From an uncultured SAR86 cluster bacterium (lineage in GTDB: Bacteria; Pseudomonadota; Gammaproteobacteria; Magnimaribacterales; AG-339-G14): a stretch of 64,000 bases of DNA. Positions 32,068 to 44,136 of this stretch are shown here, piece by piece. Below the pieces are notes generated by a model. It was not told the origin of the DNA, did not search any database, and saw only the letters and a list, made by a program, of their open reading frames with translations. The stretch is from positions 33,056-97,055 of the forward strand of contig CACFWO010000006.1 of the NCBI GenBank assembly GCA_902570035.1, in the 5' to 3' direction. Numbering within the stretch: the first letter of the stretch is position 1; each line of letters begins with the position of its first letter. The translations under genes were made by a program, and so were the position numbers.

Positions 32068-32598
32068 TCAGCTCTTTGGATAAGAGCTGAATATTCTTTC
32101 GACTGCTTCGTCAATTACTCCCTGATCAGAAGAATAAGATTTTGGTAATCTTGTTGAACCATACCAAACAACCTCCTGAGAACTTGATTCTTTCACATAT
32201 ATAGCAAGCCTAAACTCTTTGGAAGGCACGTAATTGTAAAAAGTATCATTGTAAAAAGGATGCCTTCTATATTGAAAACCAAAAGATGCAGGTCGATATC
32301 TGTAATCATCCTTTGAACCGTAAGCAAAAGATATTTCAAGATCTGGATTTGCTTGATCTTCATCTAAAGAAAGGTTTTCTAATGACCCAAGAATGGACCT
32401 AGATATTCTAGTAAGTATTACTGGATTCTCTGAAATATCAGAGGTGTCTGAAAATGGCTCAGGCTTGATAAATCTAAAGGAATCATAAGAGCTAGGATCA
32501 AAACTCTCAAATTGATCTGAATACACAGGAACAGTCATTGAACAGCTAAGAATCATTAGAACAGTTATTAGAGCTAAAACTATTTTTTTATAAATCAT
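32068..32598 (-). CDS. DUF4136-like lipoprotein
   Basis: Lipobox ILSC; VWYG and IDEAVERIFSSYP C-terminus. Confidence 0.7.
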   Translation of the reverse strand: MIYKKIVLALITVLMILSCSMTVPVYSDQFESFDPSSYDSFRFIKPEPFSDTSDISENPVILTRISRSILGSLENLSLDEDQANPDLEISFAYGSKDDYRYRPASFGFQYRRHPFYNDTFYNYVPSKEFRLAIYVKESSSQEVVWYGSTRLPKSYSSDQGVIDEAVERIFSSYPKS

Positions 32599-32617
32599 AT
32601 GAGAATATTATCTTATT

Positions 32618-33241
32618 TCATGCTTTTTTAAATAAGTAATAAAAAGGATTTCTTAACTTATTCTTACAACTATAAAATTGCGATTTATATCTATTAGCAT
32701 TGTTTTGAACTGTCGTTGCAACATCAGTAAGCCAAGGTTTATTTCGATAGCTACCCTTTTTATAACCCCCTTGCCCCTCATGATAAGCAAGATACAGAAG
32801 CCTTGCATTATCTCTTGGGATTCCAATTTTTTTGTGACTTAAATTATTGTACCAAGCAATGAAATCAATAGAATCATCAAAATTCCTTCTGTAAGCGAAA
32901 GTTTTTTTAGCTTCTTTTTTATATCTTTCCCATGTTCCATCAAGGGCTTGGGCATACCCAAATGCAGAACTTTTTCTTTTCCATGGAATGAAGCCCAATA
33001 ATTTTGTTCTTTCGGGTCTTGCTCCCTGAATGTATGAAGATTCTTGCAAAATAAAAGCCATATTAACTTCAAGAGGAATTTTCCATCTCTTTGAAGATTT
33101 AATTGCAGCTTTATACCAAGACCGTTTTTCTAAGAATATTGAACATATATCGTTGGGTTTTTTTGGAGGAGAGACAGCACAAGAATTTAAAATAAGAATT
33201 AAAATAAAGCCAGATAACAAACTTGCTCTTTTAAAAATCAT
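32618..33241 (-). CDS. Transglycosylase SLT-like lipoprotein
   Basis: Lipobox LNSC; QESS catalytic Glu, SSAFGYAQA, LYLAYHEG. Confidence 0.85.
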   Translation of the reverse strand: MIFKRASLLSGFILILILNSCAVSPPKKPNDICSIFLEKRSWYKAAIKSSKRWKIPLEVNMAFILQESSYIQGARPERTKLLGFIPWKRKSSAFGYAQALDGTWERYKKEAKKTFAYRRNFDDSIDFIAWYNNLSHKKIGIPRDNARLLYLAYHEGQGGYKKGSYRNKPWLTDVATTVQNNANRYKSQFYSCKNKLRNPFYYLFKKA

Positions 33242-35231
33242 CTTCGGTAAGAATATCTATTTTAAGTTTTTGAGCCTTTTCTAATTTGCTGCCAGGATCC
33301 TCTCCTAAGACCAAATAGTTTGTTTTAGATGAAATAGACCCAGAAACCTTCCCTCCCTTTGACTCTATAATGCCTTTTAATTCATTTCGAGAAAATTTAG
33401 AAAATTTGCCGGTAATTACAAAACTCATCTCTTGGAATTCATTCGACGATGAAATATGCTCTTCATGAGAAATATTTACTCCTAAGTTCTGCATGGTTTT
33501 AATTTTCTTAATAACTTTCTTATCAGAAAAAAAGATGCTGATATTTTTTGCAACTACCTCTCCAATATCATTAATCTCAATGAGCCTGTCATGAGATGGG
33601 GAAAAAAGATTCTCAATTGATTTATATTCTGCAGCTAAGTTTTTTGATGTCACCTCACCAACTTCTTTTATTCCGAGCGCATAAATGAATCTACTCAAAG
33701 AGATATCCATACTGCGTTTAATAGAAGAAATTAATTTATTAGCAGATTTTTCTGCAAAACCCGGTAGGTGCTCTAAATTATTTTTATTAAGCCTAAAAAT
33801 ATCTTCATTTTGTTTTAATAGCCCTTTATCGATAAACAACTCGATATTTTTTGCCCCTAGACCATCGATATTAAAGGCAGCCTTAGAAACAAAATGATCC
33901 ATAGATTCTTGGAATTGATGTCTGGAAAAACAATTTGAATCAATTGCATCATCCATGCTAAAAATAATTTTTTCTTCGAAATAACTCACCTTTCGCTTAC
34001 AGCTCAGGCAAAATTCTGGAGATGAAACTTTTACTTTATTTGTTGATTTTTTTTCAATAACTTTTGTAATTTTAGGAATTACATCTCCAGCCCTTTTTAA
34101 ACTAATTATATCTCCTTCCTGAACCCCTAATCTCTCTATCTCATCAATATTATGCAAGGTGGCATTAGAAACTGTTACGCCTCCAACTTGAACTGGGTCT
34201 AATTTAGCAACAGGAGTTAATTTTCCTGTCCTTCCCATATTGAAAATTATTTTTTTTACCTTGGTAGTAACTTCTAAAGCCTTAAACTTTCTTGCTATCG
34301 CCCATTTTGGCGACCTTGCATTTAAGCCTACTTCTTCCTGAATTTTTAAGTCATCGATTTTGATGACCATGCCATCGATTTCATAATCCAAACTATCTCT
34401 TAGCAATGAAATCTCATTGAAATATGATTCGCAATCATTTATCGAGGCAAATTCTTTAACTAGATCATTGATAGGTAAGCCCCACTTTCTAAATTGTTGA
34501 ATCATAGATGAATGAGACTCAAAGTAAGATTCATCTGATATAAAACCTATGCCGTGGGCAATCATTTTTAGAGGTCTTCTAGCAACGATTTTAGAATCTA
34601 ATTGTCTTAAGCTTCCTGCTGCAGCGTTTCGAGGATTTGCGAATTTTTTTTCTGCAAGCTGCTTATTTAATTCATTAAAAGAGGAGAGTTCCATATAGAT
34701 TTCTCCCCTAACATCAAAGTCTTTGGGATCTTTAGCGGAAAAATTTTCAAGTTTTAGTGGAATCCCTTGGATAGTCTTTACGTTTTGAGTTACGTCTTCG
34801 CCAATGCTTCCGTCTCCTCTGGTTCCAGCAGAATGAAAAAAGCCATCCTTGTACCTTATTGAAATGGCAACGCCATCCATTTTTGGCTCACAAGAAAATT
34901 TCAGATTATTGAATTTTTCTTTCGGATTAACTCTTTTATTGAAATCAGTAAGCTCATTAATTGAAAAAGCATTATCCAAAGATAGCATTTTCTTTCTGTG
35001 AGAATATTTTTGAAATTGATCTAAAGGAGAGAAACCAATTCTTTTGGTGGGTGAATTCTCAGTATCCAGAAAATCATTATTTTTTTCAAAATCTATTAAT
35101 TCTTTGAATAAAGAATCGTATTTTTCATCGCTAACTTTTGAGATGTCATGTCGATGATATGATTCATTGAGCTCTAATATCCGATTTTTTAAATCTGTAT
35201 ATTTTTTTTGAATTTCCTCCTTGGAAACCAT
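33231..35231 (-). CDS. ligA: NAD-dependent DNA ligase
   Basis: MLSLDN, EPKMDG (KxDG), TRGDG, VRGE, NPRNAAAGSLRQLD, GRTG, BRCT domain. Confidence 0.97.
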   Translation of the reverse strand: MVSKEEIQKKYTDLKNRILELNESYHRHDISKVSDEKYDSLFKELIDFEKNNDFLDTENSPTKRIGFSPLDQFQKYSHRKKMLSLDNAFSINELTDFNKRVNPKEKFNNLKFSCEPKMDGVAISIRYKDGFFHSAGTRGDGSIGEDVTQNVKTIQGIPLKLENFSAKDPKDFDVRGEIYMELSSFNELNKQLAEKKFANPRNAAAGSLRQLDSKIVARRPLKMIAHGIGFISDESYFESHSSMIQQFRKWGLPINDLVKEFASINDCESYFNEISLLRDSLDYEIDGMVIKIDDLKIQEEVGLNARSPKWAIARKFKALEVTTKVKKIIFNMGRTGKLTPVAKLDPVQVGGVTVSNATLHNIDEIERLGVQEGDIISLKRAGDVIPKITKVIEKKSTNKVKVSSPEFCLSCKRKVSYFEEKIIFSMDDAIDSNCFSRHQFQESMDHFVSKAAFNIDGLGAKNIELFIDKGLLKQNEDIFRLNKNNLEHLPGFAEKSANKLISSIKRSMDISLSRFIYALGIKEVGEVTSKNLAAEYKSIENLFSPSHDRLIEINDIGEVVAKNISIFFSDKKVIKKIKTMQNLGVNISHEEHISSSNEFQEMSFVITGKFSKFSRNELKGIIESKGGKVSGSISSKTNYLVLGEDPGSKLEKAQKLKIDILTEDDF

Positions 35232-35863
35232 CAGGATAGCTTAATTTTTTTTAGATCTGTTTCCTCGGCCTGTTGCATATAATGATCATACATCTGCTTA
35301 GTCAGTTTATTTCTATCTGAATCGAGCACATTTGCAGATAAATAGGCTGCTAACTTATAAGACATCTCTGCCATACCCTGAAAAGCTTCAACACAATTAT
35401 TTTGCTCATCTGTAATGAGAATCATTGTAATGATGGAAGTCGAATCTATCCCCTCCTCAGGAAGAAATTTCCCTGGTTTCAATCCATTGACCAGCGAAAA
35501 ATTATTTGAATCATCTAAATATATCTTAAGCCAGCCACCTTCATCAGCTAGATTGATATCATTGTTATCAAAATAACTTAGAAGATCTTTATATTGAATA
35601 GTGTTATTTTGATCGGATTCTATATGCAAATAAATTAAGTTATCTGAGGGGGGTTCAGGTTCAGGCGGCATATCATCGTCTATGAAATCTTCTTCTGAGA
35701 AGTCTTCAAGTTCAACCTTTACTTCATTGCCATTAGCAACGGAACTCTTTTGTGATTTCCTATTTGGACTTTTTCTGTAATTTATTATTTTTCTAAAAGT
35801 CAGGATTATTGTTACGGCAAGAAAAAAGGAAATTAGGAGAACTAATATTTCTCTTAAATTCAT
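35231..35863 (-). CDS. zipA: Cell division protein ZipA (compact)
   Basis: N-terminal TM, acidic/Pro linker, C-terminal FSLVNGLKPGKF...VLDSDR; located between smc and ligA. Confidence 0.8.
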   Translation of the reverse strand: MNLREILVLLISFFLAVTIILTFRKIINYRKSPNRKSQKSSVANGNEVKVELEDFSEEDFIDDDMPPEPEPPSDNLIYLHIESDQNNTIQYKDLLSYFDNNDINLADEGGWLKIYLDDSNNFSLVNGLKPGKFLPEEGIDSTSIITMILITDEQNNCVEAFQGMAEMSYKLAAYLSANVLDSDRNKLTKQMYDHYMQQAEETDLKKIKLS

Positions 35864-38289
35864 TCGTTAACTGCAAGGCTTAAGGCTTCCTCTACATCCA
35901 CAGATACAAGTCTTGAGACCCCCGCCTCTTCCATAGTTATACCCATAAGATGTTTACTCTTCTCCATAGAAATTTTGTTGTGAGTAATGTAGATGAATTG
36001 AATCTTTTTAGACATTTCTTCAACCATGGAAATGTAACGGAAAGTATTTAAGTCATCTAATGGAGCATCAATTTCATCTAATATGCAAAATGGAGATGGA
36101 TTAAGAGAAAAGAAAGAGAATACCATTGCAATAGCGCTCATAGCTTTCTCTCCTCCAGAAAGTTGAGATACTGATACATTTTTTTTACCTGGCGGCATTG
36201 CTTTCAAAACCACTCCTGACTCCAAGACGTCTTCTCCGGTTAATTCCAGTTTTGCATGCCCTCCTCCAAAAAGTTTAGGAAATAATTTAGCAATTTCTGA
36301 ATTCACACTATCCAAGGTATCTTGGAATTTTGTTCTAGATTCTTGATCAATTTTTTTAATAGCGCTCTGAAGAGTTTCAATTGCTTTATTCAATTCGTTG
36401 AGTTGACTTTCTATTTCCTGATTTCGTTCTTCTTCAATCTTAAATTCTTCTTTTGCTACCAGATTAATTGGTCCAATTGATTCAATTTGTTTATTAAATC
36501 TTTCAATCTCATTTTCAATGAAAGCTAAATCAAATTCAGGTTCTAGTTTGTCTAGAACTGTTTGTAATTCTCCATATTCAGATTGAATCTGTTTTTGTAA
36601 TATTTCTGCTTCGGTTAGAAACTTTTGTTTTTCAACAACAGAAGAATTTGAGAGTGATTTTAATTCTTCGATCTTAACTTCTCCTATATTGAGATTTTTT
36701 TCTAACATTCTTATTTCTTCATTTGTTCTTTCAAAATTGTTTCTCAAAGCAGTTAATTCATTTTGATTTCCAGATCTTTTGTCTAAAAGGGGTTTAATTT
36801 CTTTTTTTATTTCATTTATGGGAATCATTAGTGACTCTCTGGATTCAGAGAGTTCTTTGGTCTTGCTTTGAAATGTTTCTATCTCTTTTTGTTTTGAATG
36901 AATAGCACCTTCTAGTTTGCTTATTTCTAGGTTTTTATTTGCAACTTCTTGGATAGCTTTTGTGTATTTCTCTCTCTTCTCATTTAAAGCTCCTTTCTCG
37001 GCATCGCTAATATTTTTAAATTCAGCCTTATATCTTGAAAGACCGCTTTGAATATTTGTTGAATCACTGAGAACCTCTCTGAGTTCATTGTCAAAATTAG
37101 CGCTTTCAGATAAATTTTTAATTTTTACAATCAGGTTTCCGATATCATTTAATAATTTATCCAAAAATTCTTCAGGTGAACTTGAAATCTGAAGTTTCTC
37201 AAAATCATTTTTGGCCTCTTCCAGAGCATTTGTTTCTTTTTCCAATGAAGTCCTGATTTGTTCAATTGCATTTTTTTCTGAGTTTATGTTTGAATTTAAA
37301 GCAATAATTTTTTGATTAATGGATTCTATTTCATTATTTGTTAAAACTACTTTCTCTTCTAAAGAAATTAACTCTTGCTCAGATTTTGATATCTCTGCTC
37401 CACTGCTGTAGAAAGATTCCTGCATTTTTTCAATTTGTAGAAGCAAGTTAGATTGATTATTTCTTGTTTCTTCTATTTGAGTATTTATTTTTTCTTTTTC
37501 AGAGATTTTCTTCTGTATCTCTATTTCCTGCCTTTTCTGATTAAGTTCCATTTCTTTTACTTTTTCTGAAGAAGCAAGCCAGTTTGATGCAAGTTTTAGG
37601 GATCTAAATTTTTTTAAATTTTGTTTAGCTAAATCATACTTTTCTGCTGATTTAATTTGTTGTTTGAGCTTTAAGAGGTTTCTATCAATTTCTTTTTTTA
37701 AATCATTGACACGATCCAAATTTTCCTTAGTCTTCTTGATTCTGCTTTCGGTTTCTTTTCTTCTCTCTTTATAAACTGATATCCCAGCAACTTCCTCAAT
37801 ATGTGAGCGTAATTCTTCTGGCTTTGAGCTAATCAGTTTTGTTGCCATTTCTTGCTCAATGACAGCATAACTTCTGGGACCAAGCCCAGTACCTAAGAAA
37901 ATATCGGTGATATCTTTTCTCCTGCAAGAAGAACCGTTTAAGTAGTAAGAAGATAAGCCCTCATGATCCACTTGTCTTTTCACAGAAATTTCAGAGTAGC
38001 TAGAATATTCCCCTCCGAGTCTGCCTGAAGAATTATCAAAAACTAATTCAACTGATGCTCTCGAGGAAGCCGGCCTTGCAACAGACCCGTTAAAAATAAC
38101 ATCTGACATGCTATCTCCTCTGAGATTTTTTGCTGAGCCTTCGCCTAGGACCCATCTGACCGCATCGATAATATTTGATTTACCACATCCGTTGGGACCA
38201 ACCACTGCTGACATATCTGAAGGGAAAGGTATTCTCGTGGGATCCACGAAAGACTTGAAGCCAGAAAGGCTGATGTGTTTAAGCCTCAT
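35860..38289 (-). CDS. smc: Chromosome segregation SMC protein (short, 809 aa)
   Basis: GFKSF, Walker A GPNGCGKSN, LRG..MSDVIF, Q-loop IEQ, IGPINL, LSGGEK, LDEIDAPLD, ITHN. Confidence 0.93.
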   Translation of the reverse strand: MRLKHISLSGFKSFVDPTRIPFPSDMSAVVGPNGCGKSNIIDAVRWVLGEGSAKNLRGDSMSDVIFNGSVARPASSRASVELVFDNSSGRLGGEYSSYSEISVKRQVDHEGLSSYYLNGSSCRRKDITDIFLGTGLGPRSYAVIEQEMATKLISSKPEELRSHIEEVAGISVYKERRKETESRIKKTKENLDRVNDLKKEIDRNLLKLKQQIKSAEKYDLAKQNLKKFRSLKLASNWLASSEKVKEMELNQKRQEIEIQKKISEKEKINTQIEETRNNQSNLLLQIEKMQESFYSSGAEISKSEQELISLEEKVVLTNNEIESINQKIIALNSNINSEKNAIEQIRTSLEKETNALEEAKNDFEKLQISSSPEEFLDKLLNDIGNLIVKIKNLSESANFDNELREVLSDSTNIQSGLSRYKAEFKNISDAEKGALNEKREKYTKAIQEVANKNLEISKLEGAIHSKQKEIETFQSKTKELSESRESLMIPINEIKKEIKPLLDKRSGNQNELTALRNNFERTNEEIRMLEKNLNIGEVKIEELKSLSNSSVVEKQKFLTEAEILQKQIQSEYGELQTVLDKLEPEFDLAFIENEIERFNKQIESIGPINLVAKEEFKIEEERNQEIESQLNELNKAIETLQSAIKKIDQESRTKFQDTLDSVNSEIAKLFPKLFGGGHAKLELTGEDVLESGVVLKAMPPGKKNVSVSQLSGGEKAMSAIAMVFSFFSLNPSPFCILDEIDAPLDDLNTFRYISMVEEMSKKIQFIYITHNKISMEKSKHLMGITMEEAGVSRLVSVDVEEALSLAVNE

Positions 38290-38348: not shown

Positions 38349-38930
38349 TTAGTCTTCAAGGGATTTCAATTGTTTTAAGGCTTTGCTCATTCCCGCCATA
38401 ATTATTCTTTTTTGATCTGCATCATCTGAGTATTCGAATGCAATTGACCATGATTTAAGTGCATCCTTGTAATTTTCATCCAAGGTCTGTTTAAGACCGT
38501 TAAGAATTAAAGCTCTTACGTTGGCAGGATCTTTGAGTAAGGACTGTTCAATTAAACTTTCAATATCATCATTGAAAATTTGATTATTGGATAAATATTT
38601 AGTTTCTGCTGTTAAAGCAATTACTTCAGCATCAGTATCGTTAGGGAAGTTCAGAATGAAATGCTGAAGAGTCCCGTAGGCTAATGCATACTCAGATTTA
38701 TCAAATAAGTAGTTGGCTAAAAAGTAAACTTGAGCAGGATTGTTGCTAGAGAGATTGATAATGCTATTTATTTTATTTTTTTTCTCCTCAAAAGAGGCAT
38801 TGTCAATAAAATTTAGTTGTAAATCTCTCTGAAAATTTAGTTTTTGAAAATTTTCTTGGCCAAAAAGAAAAAAATAAATTACAGCAGAAAATACTAAAGA
38901 CAATCCAAAAATCTTATACTTTTTAATCAT
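38349..38930 (-). CDS. ccmI: CcmI/CycH-like TPR protein
   Basis: N-terminal TM, TPR-like helices (LLKDPANVRAL, ALKSW); last gene of the ccm cluster. Confidence 0.65.
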   Translation of the reverse strand: MIKKYKIFGLSLVFSAVIYFFLFGQENFQKLNFQRDLQLNFIDNASFEEKKNKINSIINLSSNNPAQVYFLANYLFDKSEYALAYGTLQHFILNFPNDTDAEVIALTAETKYLSNNQIFNDDIESLIEQSLLKDPANVRALILNGLKQTLDENYKDALKSWSIAFEYSDDADQKRIIMAGMSKALKQLKSLED

Positions 38931-39303
38931 TTTTTTTGAGAAAAATTCTTGCAGCAAATAATATTAATAAAAATAAAATCAATGGAAGAAGCCAAAGAAA
39001 AATATTGTTTTCAAAAGAAGGCTTATAGGTTACTTCTTCACCAAAAATATTTCTTAAGTTAGCTAAAATTTCTTCATCAGATTTTCCTAATAATATTTCC
39101 TTGTAAATTTTGTTTTTGATGTCAGATGCTATTGGAGCGTTTGATCCAGCAATACTAGATCCTTCACATAATGGACAACTAACCTCCTTTTGAAGGGAAT
39201 AAAATCTTTTTTCATCCGAATCATTTATGAAAGAAAAAGTCATAAATTCATCTTCACCATAGACTGACTGAGAAAAAAGCAGAATCAGTAAAAAAGTCTT
39301 CAT
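38923..39303 (-). CDS. ccmH: Cytochrome c biogenesis protein CcmH
   Basis: SCPLCEG, SNAPIA, C-terminal TM LWLLP. Confidence 0.9.
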   Translation of the reverse strand: MKTFLLILLFSQSVYGEDEFMTFSFINDSDEKRFYSLQKEVSCPLCEGSSIAGSNAPIASDIKNKIYKEILLGKSDEEILANLRNIFGEEVTYKPSFENNIFLWLLPLILFLLILFAARIFLKKND

Positions 39304-39806
39304 TTTTTAATCAAAGGAGCAAATTTATTTTTCCATACCTCTTTGTCTAGAACCCCAACGTGATGCATAACAATAGAATCTCCATTCTTAATTAAAAATG
39401 TCTCTGGAGCACCTGATACACCTAACAAAAATCCTACCTCTCCTTGATCATCAAATAGATTTTTTATATAAGGATCTCCAAATTGATCAAGCCATTTAAA
39501 AGCTTTTTCTTTATCGTCTTTGTAATTTATTCCAATGATAGATATTCCTTTTTTCTCTAACTCCATTAAGTATGAGTGCTCTAATCTACATCCCACGCAC
39601 CAAGTTGCCCAAATATTGAGCAGCGAAAGAGAATCATTTTTAAGTTGCTCACTTGTAAAAGAATCTCCGTTAAGTAGCTTTGACTCAAAAGGAGCTAAAC
39701 TCTTTTGATTAAACTCTTCAACATCAGAATTAAGAAATAATTGAAAAAATAAAAGCCCAAAAAGTGATATTGCTAAAAAGATCGTTAAAAGAGGATAAAT
39801 TTTCAT
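39300..39806 (-). CDS. ccmG: Thiol:disulfide interchange protein CcmG/DsbE
   Basis: NIWATWCVGC, GINYKD, GDPY, GVSGAPETF. Confidence 0.93.
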   Translation of the reverse strand: MKIYPLLTIFLAISLFGLLFFQLFLNSDVEEFNQKSLAPFESKLLNGDSFTSEQLKNDSLSLLNIWATWCVGCRLEHSYLMELEKKGISIIGINYKDDKEKAFKWLDQFGDPYIKNLFDDQGEVGFLLGVSGAPETFLIKNGDSIVMHHVGVLDKEVWKNKFAPLIKK

Positions 39807-41662
39807 TTAAATTTAAAATTAGTTCTTACTAATAGTCCTGCAAGAAACATAATTATTGCTCCAAGCCAAATAAAACGTACCAGAGGTTTGATTTGAACCT
39901 TGGCAGCCCAGGCATTTTCACCAATTTTCTGCCCCAAGGAAATATATACGTCCTTATAAACAGAAGGATAAATTCCTGCTTCTGTAGTTTCCATTCTAGA
40001 TGCCGGATAAAATCTCCTCTCTGGATAAAGTTTCAGAATTCTATCTTCCTCTTGGAAAGAAAATGTCACCCTATCACCGTAATAGTTATCTTCTTGAACT
40101 GATTGGGTATTTTCTAATGTGATTTTTGAAGAACCCACTAAAACTGATTCATTTTTTTGTAAAACGAATTCCTTTTCCACAGAATTTAAAGAGGAGATAG
40201 TAATGCCGAAAGTAAGAATTGCTAATCCCAGATGTCCTGCAATCATAGAAAAGTTAATTTTACGTTGAGAGTGAAAGCTCTTGAAAGCTAGAAAAGCTAA
40301 CGATTGAATTAACATCAAGACAATTGCATTACCGATAAATTCGTAAAAAGAAAAAGAGAAGAATAAATATGAGACAAAATAACTCAGGATAATGCTTGAA
40401 ATTATGATTATTCCAATTGAATTTAAATTATCTATTTTATTTCCTCCCCACTTAGTTAAAGGCCCGATTGCTTGAAAGAATAGTAAGATCAAGGCAAAAG
40501 GAACGGTAACCATATTGAAATATGGAGCTCCAACAGTAATTTGGTCTCCACCTGAAAAAATCTCGTAGATAATTGGGTAAATGGTGCCAAGCAGAACTAT
40601 AGCTGATAGGGTCACTAAAAAAGCATTATTTATAAAAAACATAAACTCTTTGGAATAAATTCCCATGTCAGTTTTTAAACCTCTGCTATCACTTTTCAAA
40701 AAAAATAAAGAAAATCCAAGAATAACTATCACAAAACAAATTAATAACAGAAAAATACCTCTGTCAGGATCCAGTGCAAATGAGTGAACAGAAGTAATAA
40801 TGCCCGACCTAACAAGAAACATCCCCAATAGGCTACCAGCCAGCGAGAGGATTGTTAGGGCAAGAGTCCAATTGATAAAAATTTGTCTAGCGTTGGTTGC
40901 TATCGATGAATGAATTAAAGCAGTGCACAACAACCAAGGTACTAGTGCAGAGTTTTCTACCGGATCCCAAAACCACCAGCCTCCCCATCCAAGTTCATAA
41001 TAGGCCCACCAACTGCCTAAGGAAATTCCGAGAGTGAGGAAAGACCACGAAACAACAGACCATGAGCGTATTGGTTCCAGTTGTTTAACCTTTTCCTGAT
41101 TTAAAAGAAAATTCATAGCAATTCCGAATGGAATGACTAATCCAGCGTATCCCACATAGAGCATTGGAGGATGAATTGTAAAGGCAAAATCCTGAAGCAA
41201 TGGGTTGAGATCCGAACCAGATATTGAAGAAATGGGCAGCAATCTTTCGAATGGATTGGAAAGAAAAACCGTGAAAGCAAGCAACGCAAATAAAACGATG
41301 TTCATAAAAGCAGATGAATATTTTTGATCTTCATTAAAAAAAACAAAGACTAGGATCCATCCAGCCAAGATAAGAAGAAATAATAATAATGATCCTTCAT
41401 GTCCGCCCCATAGTGCAGCAAATTTGTAATAAATTGGTAAATTAGGATTCGAGTTAGTGGCTACATAAAGCACACTAAAATCATCAGTCAAAAAAGATAC
41501 TTCAAGAGCTATGAAACTCAGAAAGATGGCTAAAAAAGTAACCAAGCTGGCTGATAAAAAAAATCTTTTGTCTTTTGGAGGATAGATAAAGGCAATACAG
41601 ATTAATAAAAGGCTATTAATCATTGAGAAAATTAAAAGAAAATTTCCAAGCTCAGGAATCAT
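39803..41662 (-). CDS. ccmF: Cytochrome c heme lyase CcmF
   Basis: MIPELG, WGGHEGSLL, LNPLLQ, HPPMLY, WAYYELGWGGWWFWDPVEN, SVHSFA. Confidence 0.97.
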   Translation of the reverse strand: MIPELGNFLLIFSMINSLLLICIAFIYPPKDKRFFLSASLVTFLAIFLSFIALEVSFLTDDFSVLYVATNSNPNLPIYYKFAALWGGHEGSLLLFLLILAGWILVFVFFNEDQKYSSAFMNIVLFALLAFTVFLSNPFERLLPISSISGSDLNPLLQDFAFTIHPPMLYVGYAGLVIPFGIAMNFLLNQEKVKQLEPIRSWSVVSWSFLTLGISLGSWWAYYELGWGGWWFWDPVENSALVPWLLCTALIHSSIATNARQIFINWTLALTILSLAGSLLGMFLVRSGIITSVHSFALDPDRGIFLLLICFVIVILGFSLFFLKSDSRGLKTDMGIYSKEFMFFINNAFLVTLSAIVLLGTIYPIIYEIFSGGDQITVGAPYFNMVTVPFALILLFFQAIGPLTKWGGNKIDNLNSIGIIIISSIILSYFVSYLFFSFSFYEFIGNAIVLMLIQSLAFLAFKSFHSQRKINFSMIAGHLGLAILTFGITISSLNSVEKEFVLQKNESVLVGSSKITLENTQSVQEDNYYGDRVTFSFQEEDRILKLYPERRFYPASRMETTEAGIYPSVYKDVYISLGQKIGENAWAAKVQIKPLVRFIWLGAIIMFLAGLLVRTNFKFK

Positions 41663-42080
41663 TTACAAGCGCCTTTTTTACTTCTTTTGGAATGTAATTT
41701 TCATCATGTTTGGCTAATATTTCTTTGGCATAAAAGATTCCATCAGAATAATCATAGAAGCCTCGAGCAATTACTCCTGAGTTTTCTTTGAATAAATTAG
41801 GAAGAATGCCCTCATAATAGACTTCTATAGAATTTTCTAAATCTGTCACAAGAAAATTCGTCTCAAGACTGTCTTTACTTATATTAATTGAGTCTTCTTG
41901 GACAAGGCCCCCAATTCTTAGACTGTCTTTATTAATAATTTTTGAGCCAGTTAGATCTGATGGAGTGTAATAGAAATCTACATTTTCATTCATTGCTAAA
42001 ACTATGAACGTAAAAGCTACAGACAAACTAGCAATCAAAGAGGATACGAAAATTACTCTATTTCTTCTTTTGGTTCTCAT
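41652..42080 (-). CDS. ccmE: Heme chaperone CcmE
   Basis: RIGGLV, GILPNLFKE, LAKHDENY heme-binding motif. Confidence 0.95.
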   Translation of the reverse strand: MRTKRRNRVIFVSSLIASLSVAFTFIVLAMNENVDFYYTPSDLTGSKIINKDSLRIGGLVQEDSINISKDSLETNFLVTDLENSIEVYYEGILPNLFKENSGVIARGFYDYSDGIFYAKEILAKHDENYIPKEVKKALVNDS

Positions 42081-42184
42081 TTTATTTTTTCTTTGAATTT
42101 GTTTAATCCGAATAATGCAATTGAAGAAGTAATCACAAAAATGATTAAACTCATCATAAGGACTATTTTTAATTCGAAAATCAT
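42077..42184 (-). CDS. ccmD: CcmD-like heme exporter subunit (35 aa)
   Basis: Missed by the ORF track. MIFELKIVLMMSLIIFVITSSIALFGLNKFKEKIK: one TM plus a basic tail, with ATGA overlaps to both ccmC and ccmE. Identity is positional. Confidence 0.75.
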   Translation of the reverse strand: MIFELKIVLMMSLIIFVITSSIALFGLNKFKEKIK

Positions 42185-42918
42185 TTCTTTTCTTGAAAAA
42201 TTCTTTTTACCCAATTATGCGAAATCTCTCTTTTCAAAATTTCTACTTGCATTCTGCGCATTCCAATTGCCGTTACATATAAATAAAAACCAAGTATAGA
42301 AATCAACAATGGAATTAACATTTCATTATCAATGCTTGAGCCCGATAAAGTTATTGATGCAGACTGATGGAGAGTATTCCACCATTCAACTGACAACTTA
42401 ATAATTGGAAGATTAATTCCTCCAATCAGTACAACAATTGACACTGCTTGATCAATCGAAGCTCTCCTGTCAAAGCTCGAAAAGAGACTGATTATTGCTA
42501 AGTATAAAATTAATAAAATTAGTGTTGAAGTTAATCTTGCATCCCAAACCCACCAGGTCCCCCAAGTAGGCTGTCCCCAAACTGCTCCAGTAAAAAGTGC
42601 TAAAAAAGTGAATATAGCCCCTAAAGGAGCCATAGAAATCATGAATACACTAGCCATTTTAATTCGCCATATAAGATATGTAACTGAAGCAATAACCATT
42701 GTGTAGTAGATGGACTGAGCTACGGAAGCTGCAGGAACATGAAGATATATGATTCTGTATACCTCACCTTGGGTAACGTCAACTGGCGAGAAGAAAACTC
42801 CCCAAAGAACTCCAAGAAGTATTACAGAAATAGATAAAAGAAATAAATAAGGAAAACTTATTTGAGCGATCTTAAAAAAATAAGGAAATGAAATTAGTTG
42901 ATTAAAAAATTGTCTCAT
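42181..42918 (-). CDS. ccmC: Heme exporter protein CcmC
   Basis: RIIYLHVP, WGQPTWGTWWVWDARLT (WWD domain), WWNTLHQ. Confidence 0.96.
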   Translation of the reverse strand: MRQFFNQLISFPYFFKIAQISFPYLFLLSISVILLGVLWGVFFSPVDVTQGEVYRIIYLHVPAASVAQSIYYTMVIASVTYLIWRIKMASVFMISMAPLGAIFTFLALFTGAVWGQPTWGTWWVWDARLTSTLILLILYLAIISLFSSFDRRASIDQAVSIVVLIGGINLPIIKLSVEWWNTLHQSASITLSGSSIDNEMLIPLLISILGFYLYVTAIGMRRMQVEILKREISHNWVKRIFQEKK

Positions 42919-42919
42919 C

Positions 42920-43579
42920 TTACTCAAAGTGAAGTCTAATGGCACCTAGGCATGAAGCGATAAGAATTGGGATGGAAAAAAATAAAAAGGCGGCAAGTAA
43001 AAAAATGTAAAAAAGTACTTCTTCATTTTTATAGGACTGTATAGCAAGTATTCCCAGAATTAATGCTGGTAAACACATCGGAATAACAATTGATGATCCC
43101 ACAATATTTCCTCTTTCAAGAGTCAATGCTCCTGCTAAGGCACCAAACATAGATAGAATTGGGGTTCCTAAAAATAACGTTAGAGCCAGAATCAATGCAG
43201 CATCGAAAGGGAGATAAAGCATAAATGAAGTTAGTAAAGATAAAAAAATTAAAGGAAGCGATGAAAAGCACCAATTTACAAAAATTTTAATGCTGGCCCA
43301 GAGAAATAGTGATTTTCCAGATGCTAGAACTAAATCAAGCGATCCGTCTTTGTAGTCCTCATTAAAAATAAATTGATGTGACAATAAGTTTGCTAATAGT
43401 ATCGATATCCAAATTATTCCTGCTGAGAGTTCTGCAAGCTTCTCTTCATCGGATCCAAAAGCTAAAGGATAAAGAGTAATCGTAATTAAAAAAAATACGA
43501 TTGGTCCAAGAAAAGATGATGATCTAGACAAATATACTTTTGAGTCCCTTTGGAAAGTTTTAAAATAAAAACTCTTCAC
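42920..43579 (-). CDS. ccmB: Heme exporter protein CcmB
   Basis: Six hydrophobic segments; FNEDYKDGSL and LGTP motifs. Confidence 0.92.
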   Translation of the reverse strand: MKSFYFKTFQRDSKVYLSRSSSFLGPIVFFLITITLYPLAFGSDEEKLAELSAGIIWISILLANLLSHQFIFNEDYKDGSLDLVLASGKSLFLWASIKIFVNWCFSSLPLIFLSLLTSFMLYLPFDAALILALTLFLGTPILSMFGALAGALTLERGNIVGSSIVIPMCLPALILGILAIQSYKNEEVLFYIFLLAAFLFFSIPILIASCLGAIRLHFE

Positions 43580-44136
43580 AGCGCTAGCTCTCTGCTTGAA
43601 ATATTATGATCCTCGTGAGAAGTAAAAATGACAGATGATCCTCTGTTTTGATGGTCTCTGATAGTATTCTCAATCAATTCAATCCCTTTTTTATCTAAGT
43701 TTGCAAATGGTTCATCCAGAAGAAAAAGATCGCATTTGGATAAGAATAGCTGCACCAAGGAGACCTTTTTTCTTTGACCTTGGGAGAGATTAAATAATTT
43801 AGTTTCATTCATTGAATTCAATTCAAATAATTTCAAAGCTTCGCTTAATGAATCAACTTCTGAATTAAAACGATAGTCTAATAAAAGGTTATCTTTAACT
43901 GATAAAGAATCTTTTAAGCCCAAGTTGTGCCCTAAAAAGAATACATTTTTATCTGTGGAAAGGACTTTTCCTTGAAAGTTGTTTAATATTCCGCTTAAGA
44001 TTTTTAAAAGTGTTGATTTTCCAGATCCATTTTCACCCTTGAGATGAATAATTTCGGAGGGATTTACTTCGAAATTAAGATTTTCAAGTAGAGGAAAATC
44101 ATTGAAAGAGTAAGATAAATTTTCAACTTTTATCAA
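43576..44136 (-). CDS. ccmA: Heme ABC exporter ATP-binding protein CcmA
   Basis: GENGSGKS, FLGH, LSQGQ, LLDEPF, TSH; first gene of the ccm operon. Confidence 0.92.
   Translation of the reverse strand: MIKVENLSYSFNDFPLLENLNFEVNPSEIIHLKGENGSGKSTLLKILSGILNNFQGKVLSTDKNVFFLGHNLGLKDSLSVKDNLLLDYRFNSEVDSLSEALKLFELNSMNETKLFNLSQGQRKKVSLVQLFLSKCDLFLLDEPFANLDKKGIELIENTIRDHQNRGSSVIFTSHEDHNISSRELAL

Follow-up and report, generated by a model that had tools for sequence, protein, structure and literature searches.

An Smc orthologue lacking the hinge domain in SAR86 bacteria

The gene described here, smc, lies on a 64,000-nucleotide stretch of DNA (the window) of contig CACFWO010000006.1 (GenBank assembly GCA_902570035.1, positions 33,056 to 97,055, forward strand) from an uncultured bacterium of the SAR86 order. 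The hinge is usually taken as a defining part of SMC proteins, being the dimer interface, a proposed DNA gate and a DNA-binding surface. The 809-residue product of this smc retains the ATPase heads and the arms of Smc and has no hinge. The hinge loss is real, selected and order-wide, and is not an assembly deletion. The protein is an orthologue that most likely works like a condensin, yet lacking the hinge by which the canonical Smc family is defined it stands outside that family and is filed as a hinge-less Smc orthologue.

The absence of the hinge was assessed with a custom profile. Of 83 full-length proteobacterial Smcs, 42 were used to build it and the other 41 served as held-out controls. 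The profile detected 41/41 controls, with a minimum of 27 bits and a median of 169, and scored the 809-residue protein at -3.6 bits. All 81 complete Smcs of the order (77 of them distinct, three taken from a collection scan) scored 1.3 bits or less. Pfam PF06470 (SMC_hinge) and the GX6GX3GG motif were dropped as tests of hinge loss because they are insensitive: when 16 of the 83 proteins were picked and scanned, PF06470 detected only 6 (E<=1e-4), and GX6GX3GG occurs in 0/83. To judge colinearity, the protein was aligned to a profile made from 71 full-length Smcs. Residues 1-367 correspond to profile columns 1-367 without indels and residues 394-806 to columns 753-1165, this second block being of low confidence in its first stretch and colinear from about residue 420. 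Relative to gammaproteobacterial Smc, about 358 central residues are missing, including the hinge columns (about 500-670), and the missing length is accounted for by the hinge together with 92 residues from each arm, close to a single period of the 91-residue rule in the literature. The AlphaFold2 model (58 sequences; mean predicted local distance difference test score (pLDDT) 74.6, predicted template-modelling score (pTM) 0.35) has no strand between residues 146 and 677. An earlier prediction made from the DNA letters of this stretch had proposed a protein without a hinge and with a helical centre free of any α/β domain, and the profile score, the hinge columns within the missing span and a central model of helices only bear out both points. 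The SMC_hinge scan that it suggested gave no match to the 809-residue protein at E<=1, in agreement with the loss, although the insensitivity of that family takes the weight from the result. Its use of the missing GX6GX3GG as a sign of hinge loss reached the right conclusion from a motif that does not discriminate.

The remainder of the protein is that of a bacterial Smc. It scores 780.8 bits on the Smc model TIGR02168 (cut-off 567.35), all head motifs are intact, and it matches the B. subtilis head structures 5xg3 and 3zgx in two separate stretches, the best fold match being 5xei (head, coil and joint). AlphaFold2 predicts helices at residues 170-364, 401-571 and 612-674 with a break at 572-611, consistent with a long antiparallel coiled-coil arm with a head-proximal joint. 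No internal repeats were found in the 809-residue protein. The only cysteines are C35, C122 and C735; the CxxC hook is thus absent, as had been read from the translation, and it is absent from 81/81 complete Smcs of the order. Intact half-heads, an unbroken 809-residue frame and a smc-zipA-ligA locus had also been described, in accord with the open reading frame (ORF), motif and PF04354 evidence in the features below. Of 57 other gammaproteobacterial loci over 14 kb, 55 have ligA in the neighbourhood of smc.

35860..38289, (-) strand: smc, hinge-less, 809 aa, unbroken frame (ORF call and TIGR02168)
37783..38289, (-) strand: N-terminal ATPase half-head, aa 1-169 (Walker A GPNGCGKS at aa 31, Q-loop at aa 144)
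37198..37782, (-) strand: N-terminal arm helix, aa 170-364 (no indels against the gammaproteobacterial Smc alignment)
36994..37197, (-) strand: tip in place of the hinge and distal arm, aa 365-432 (predicted hairpin)
36268..36993, (-) strand: C-terminal arm helix with the joint-region break, aa 433-674 (break at about 572-611, IGPINL motif)
35860..36267, (-) strand: C-terminal ATPase half-head, aa 675-809 (LSGGE at 710, Walker B/D-loop ILDEIDAPLD at 736, H-switch ITH at 768)
35231..35863, (-) strand: zipA, overlapping the smc stop; a synteny marker outside the complex (PF04354, E 1.8e-14)
33231..35231, (-) strand: ligA, after zipA; a synteny marker

The short form is general in the order. The tip region matches 261 database proteins, and among the matches listed 116/120 are 809 residues long. 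Head matches were obtained in 140 of 149 genomes of the order, 0/140 with an open frame over 1,010 residues. In a sample of the phylum, 82 of 148 other genomes were matched; 81/82 frames are at least 1,129 residues long and the remaining one stops at a contig end. Contigs of three different studies span the tip gap-free; two of these studies are RNA libraries, whose contigs cover smc but say nothing on transcription or its level. The comparison of lengths across relatives and the search for an assembly deletion, both proposed with the original prediction, thus found the short form throughout and no full-length relative.

Purifying selection on smc is strong. Within genera, the ratio of nonsynonymous to synonymous substitution rates (dN/dS) is 0.009-0.025 for the N-terminal head and 0.005-0.031 for the C-terminal head, 0.03-0.27 for the arms, and 0.08-0.15 for the tip in three genera, the fourth genus being saturated. 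The Smcs of the order form one group (100/100, 10 of 10 rows), which in a quick tree nests among gammaproteobacterial Smcs, with four outgroups of the same phylum placed apart; its position near sequences of Pseudomonadales type is weakly supported. The hinge-less gene is best explained as the vertically inherited Smc of SAR86, and this grouping points to a likely single loss before the order diversified.

The partners of Smc are retained. In this genome, whose assembly is 87.5% complete, scpA lies next to scpB on contig C1 and parA-parB are on contig C2, with a candidate parS (one mismatch to the consensus) about 10 kb from parA-parB; at most one mismatch to the parS consensus was allowed. 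Across 41 genomes of the order, ScpA and ScpB were each detected in 39/41 (each 27/27 in high-quality genomes) and ParB in 37/41, and a parS-like palindrome in 24/41 against one control hit. These checks of scpAB and parB, which had been called for, together with the TIGR02168 score, agree with the earlier assignment to condensin: the protein is a true condensin Smc orthologue. It is the only SMC-family gene detected in the assembly by head queries, and the MukB head (PF04310), a mark of mukB, was matched neither by this Smc nor elsewhere in the assembly. In G026-G039 (families f3 and f4 of the order), ParB was found in 9/10 and the parS consensus in 0/10; parS may have diverged in these families, which have the shortest Smcs.

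The predicted form of the tip is an extended helical hairpin with a kink at Ser371-Pro372. It comprises, in order, a loop, a family-invariant Ser-Pro (S371-P372), a helix at 373-394, a turn and a predicted return helix from 401; the peptide quoted in the original prediction corresponds to residues 370-420 (nucleotides 37182-37030). A model of residues 290-510 (pLDDT 84.9), likewise free of strands, can be superposed on Smc arm fragments and further long hairpins over 219-221 residues. The top matches are the linker-joined Smc arm fragments 5xg2 (Z 13.7, root-mean-square deviation 5.8, 219 aligned residues) and 5nnv (Z 12.6), and the cohesin elbow and chemoreceptor hairpins match at similar Z, a fold match among long helices denoting a common arrangement only. 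RecN is not among the fold matches listed for this monomer model, which excludes nothing. The dimer interface like that of RecN, which the original prediction offered as a possibility, would be an analogy with the coiled-coil apex through which RecN dimerises. Residues 370-381 have 7 conserved hydrophobic columns of 12, and 0/355 arm windows exceed 6. Three types of tip occur: a Ser-Pro-capped helix in families f1 and f3, a conserved Trp with Glu-Pro in f2, and FWxxG[FY]xxG in f4. Each family retains its own motif, and the motif keeps its position at the tip in a duplicated 995-residue form. When the central region was compared with 50%-cluster representatives, no distant tip homologue emerged; there were seven matches, one of them full-length (810 aa).

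Four length classes occur in the order: 809-810 residues in f1, 821-827 in f2, 727-736 in f4 and the short form of f3, and 995-996 in the long form of f3. The long form likewise has no hinge; it carries repeats offset by 120 residues in the N strand and 143 in the C strand, the latter duplication repeating the joint motif (L034:3005-5989, L120, L127, L168-L171, L176, L184); both arm strands are re-lengthened by this internal duplication to the canonical arm length. The earlier description of the protein as minimised therefore fits the shorter arms seen here and not these relatives, which are hinge-less yet have arms of canonical length. The long form and the 727-733-residue forms of f3 are interleaved in a quick tree, and this suggests repeated gain or collapse of the long form. 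Half of the inter-head length, a post hoc measure in which the tip is counted as arm, is 252.5-253.5 in f1 (252.5 here), 259-261.5 in f2 and 346 in the long form of f3. The functional half-length windows given for B. subtilis Smc in the accessible part of PMC5344682 are 253-267 and 330-373, and 58/81 proteins of the order lie at or within them. The same measure for canonical Smc, with the B. subtilis hinge limits 500-673 from the accessible part of PMC4785775, is (862-174)/2 = 344, matching the figure that PMC5344682 gives for wild type.

On balance, it is probable that SAR86 possesses a working Smc-ScpAB condensin, likely closed at its tip by the hairpin and by arm contacts, the dimerisation being a proposal. 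By analogy with Bacillus, ATP would bring about head engagement, ScpA would bridge the two heads, ParB would bind at the retained joint and so load the complex (ParB loading via the Smc joint is described in the available text of PMC9449133), and the complex would extrude DNA loops. The putative element is the tip, where the hairpins and side-by-side arm contacts would hold two Smcs together instead of a hinge. According to the available portions of two B. subtilis studies, an unrelated dimerisation domain in place of the hinge allows normal growth (PMC5344682), and simple removal of the hinge leaves Smc unable to localise to the chromosome (PMC4785775). Because the substituted hinge works there and the plain deletion fails, a selected smc that retains its partners should have some tip closure. 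More tentatively, the complex may be a fully active loop-extruding condensin in which the hairpin of about 60 residues, or arm-arm contact alone, replaces the hinge, and in which the arms follow the 91-residue rule and are reset in steps; the hinge and one period would have been lost here, and canonical length regained by paired duplications in the relatives. A number of observations weigh against the reading as a working condensin closed at its tip. The tip in this genus is no more tightly constrained (dN/dS 0.090) than the neighbouring arm (0.062-0.125), its overall hydrophobic fraction (0.33) is near that of the arms (0.27-0.31), and its sequence is not shared across the four families. The other 23 proteins, complete forms of 727-736 residues, have half-lengths of 212-217 and fit neither window, and the 809-residue protein itself falls outside the windows, at about 218, if the 68-residue tip is not counted as arm. 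The parS consensus, at no more than one mismatch, was found in 0/5 f3 and 0/5 f4 genomes.

It is rather unlikely that the condensin works with an open tip, the hairpin only capping the arms while the ScpA bridge, the ATP-engaged heads and arm contacts hold the two Smcs. Such an arrangement would accord with a tip that varies among families and whose predicted fold is a generic hairpin similar to many coiled coils, and with the considerable contribution of arm-arm association to dimerisation when the B. subtilis hinge is impaired, as stated in the accessible text of PMC4785775 and PMC5526789; it is harder to reconcile with the failed localisation of the hinge-deleted Smc, with a motif conserved in each family and still at the tip of the 995-residue form, and with the local hydrophobic excess at residues 370-381. 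It is improbable that the SMC has been repurposed, with loop extrusion given up for a role in tethering or repair that might stand in for RecN. RecN and Rad50 are hinge-less SMC-like proteins of DNA repair, and the SAR86 Smc has in common with RecN and Rad50/SbcC an SMC-like head, a coiled coil and no globular hinge. In the assembly, the one genome searched, recN was not found (TIGR00634, no match at E<=0.001, smc included). However, ScpA, ScpB and ParB are kept across the order, and the head and joint are colinear with those of condensin Smc. The SAR86 Smcs differ from Rad50/SbcC by the absence of CxxC. The 809-residue protein scores at most 44 bits on the Rad50/SbcC models, far below the cut-offs, and the RecN model is not among its 19 NCBIfam hits. 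Slightly less probable again is an external or split hinge, a separate small protein that bridges or caps both tips. The family-specific conserved tip residues could form a partner-binding surface, but the six-frame translation of the assembly holds no hinge-like ORF better than E 1.4 on the custom profile, PF06470 was not found in the 41 genomes (a weak test, the family being insensitive), and the neighbours of smc are zipA, ligA and cytochrome c maturation genes. An assembly deletion or a decaying gene, for which the short length alone speaks, is refuted by the 261 tip matches, the absence of long frames in the 140 genomes, the gap-free contigs and the strong purifying selection, and can be put aside with near certainty.

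Compared with the bacterial Smc of Smc-ScpAB (~1,165 aa), the SAR86 protein shares the head motifs, the colinear arm and joint, the locus, the ScpA, ScpB and ParB partners and the position in the tree; it differs by the missing hinge and about 358 fewer residues, by arms about 92 residues shorter per strand and by the predicted hairpin tip. Hinge-less SMCs are already known in marine Actinomycetes. The part of Sussfeld et al. (2025; PMC12153180) that was available describes a marine cluster of hinge-less, CxxC-free SMCs, assigned to Actinomycetes, which branches near actinobacterial Smc, and the claim of an undescribed system made in the original prediction was too strong. The SAR86 Smcs resemble this cluster in being marine, in combining heads and coiled coil with neither hinge nor CxxC, and in having no canonical Smc paralogue alongside. 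Unlike the cluster, whose sequences stand outside the tree, they nest among gammaproteobacterial Smcs, and for this reason the SAR86 loss is likely separate. The terms 'SAR86' and 'Gammaproteo' have 0 occurrences in the main text of PMC12153180 as available, and an overlap of the cluster with SAR86 sequences is unlikely. Its text as available describes neither partner genes nor the anatomy of the tip, and contains no analysis of arm length. An account of the hinge-less SAR86 Smc was not found in the literature searched, a coverage that largely excluded subscription journals. Engineered B. subtilis proteins offer a further parallel: in the accessible part of PMC5344682, on Smc(Zh) and Mini-Smc, arms shortened by one period of about 91 residues are still functional, and, together with the hinge deletion of PMC4785775, these constructs resemble the SAR86 form in that the hinge fold is dispensable given another dimerisation device. 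The SAR86 form, unlike them, is natural and has no zinc hook, and its tip device is putative. The survey in PMC5344682, as far as the available text goes, was seeded with hinge alignments and so could not include hinge-less Smcs.

An abundant ocean order with a selected Smc, ScpAB and ParB but no hinge constitutes a natural test of the role of the hinge. It offers natural proteins of four length classes (about 730, 810, 825 and 995 residues) and three tip types, with which one can test directly if loop extrusion depends on tip closure and if the rule for arm length is valid without a hinge. If the loop-extruding interpretation is true, neither a hinge gate nor DNA binding by the hinge would be required for translocation by a natural SMC, and, with repeated losses in other streamlined lineages, the hinge would be a replaceable clasp. 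The findings also carry a warning that PF06470 and GX6GX3GG misjudge proteobacterial Smcs and that surveys seeded with the hinge overlook hinge-less proteins.

A second gammaproteobacterial family, f190, with genomes of about 1 Mb, has Smc frames of 927-956 residues in 26/28 matches, and 7/7 of those tested (926-944 residues; L045:3820-6651, L185-L190) are without a hinge. These Smcs are placed apart from SAR86 in the tree, a joint clade not being rejected (p-AU 0.051), and their hinge loss is likely independent. In locus L045, ligA directly follows smc, with no intervening zipA ORF of at least 120 residues. A 1,033-residue Smc (L046:3372-6470, genome G292) keeps its hinge (149.7 bits), and each strand of its arms is shorter by about 65 residues. 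Clusters of 736-905 residues without PF06470 in the ESM Atlas, labelled Pseudomonadota, Actinomycetota, Spirochaetota and Nomurabacteria, are leads only, given the insensitivity of the Pfam family.

A scan for promoters and terminators gave 32 sites, where 47 were expected, and was uninformative. A cytochrome c maturation cluster (window 38349-44136, (-) strand) lies immediately upstream of smc in the same orientation, at a distance of 59 bases, recognised from CcmH-type matches for two genes with the remainder read by eye. Downstream of ligA, also on the same strand, are genes for a transglycosylase (PF19489) and a DUF4136 lipoprotein (window 32068-33241, (-) strand).

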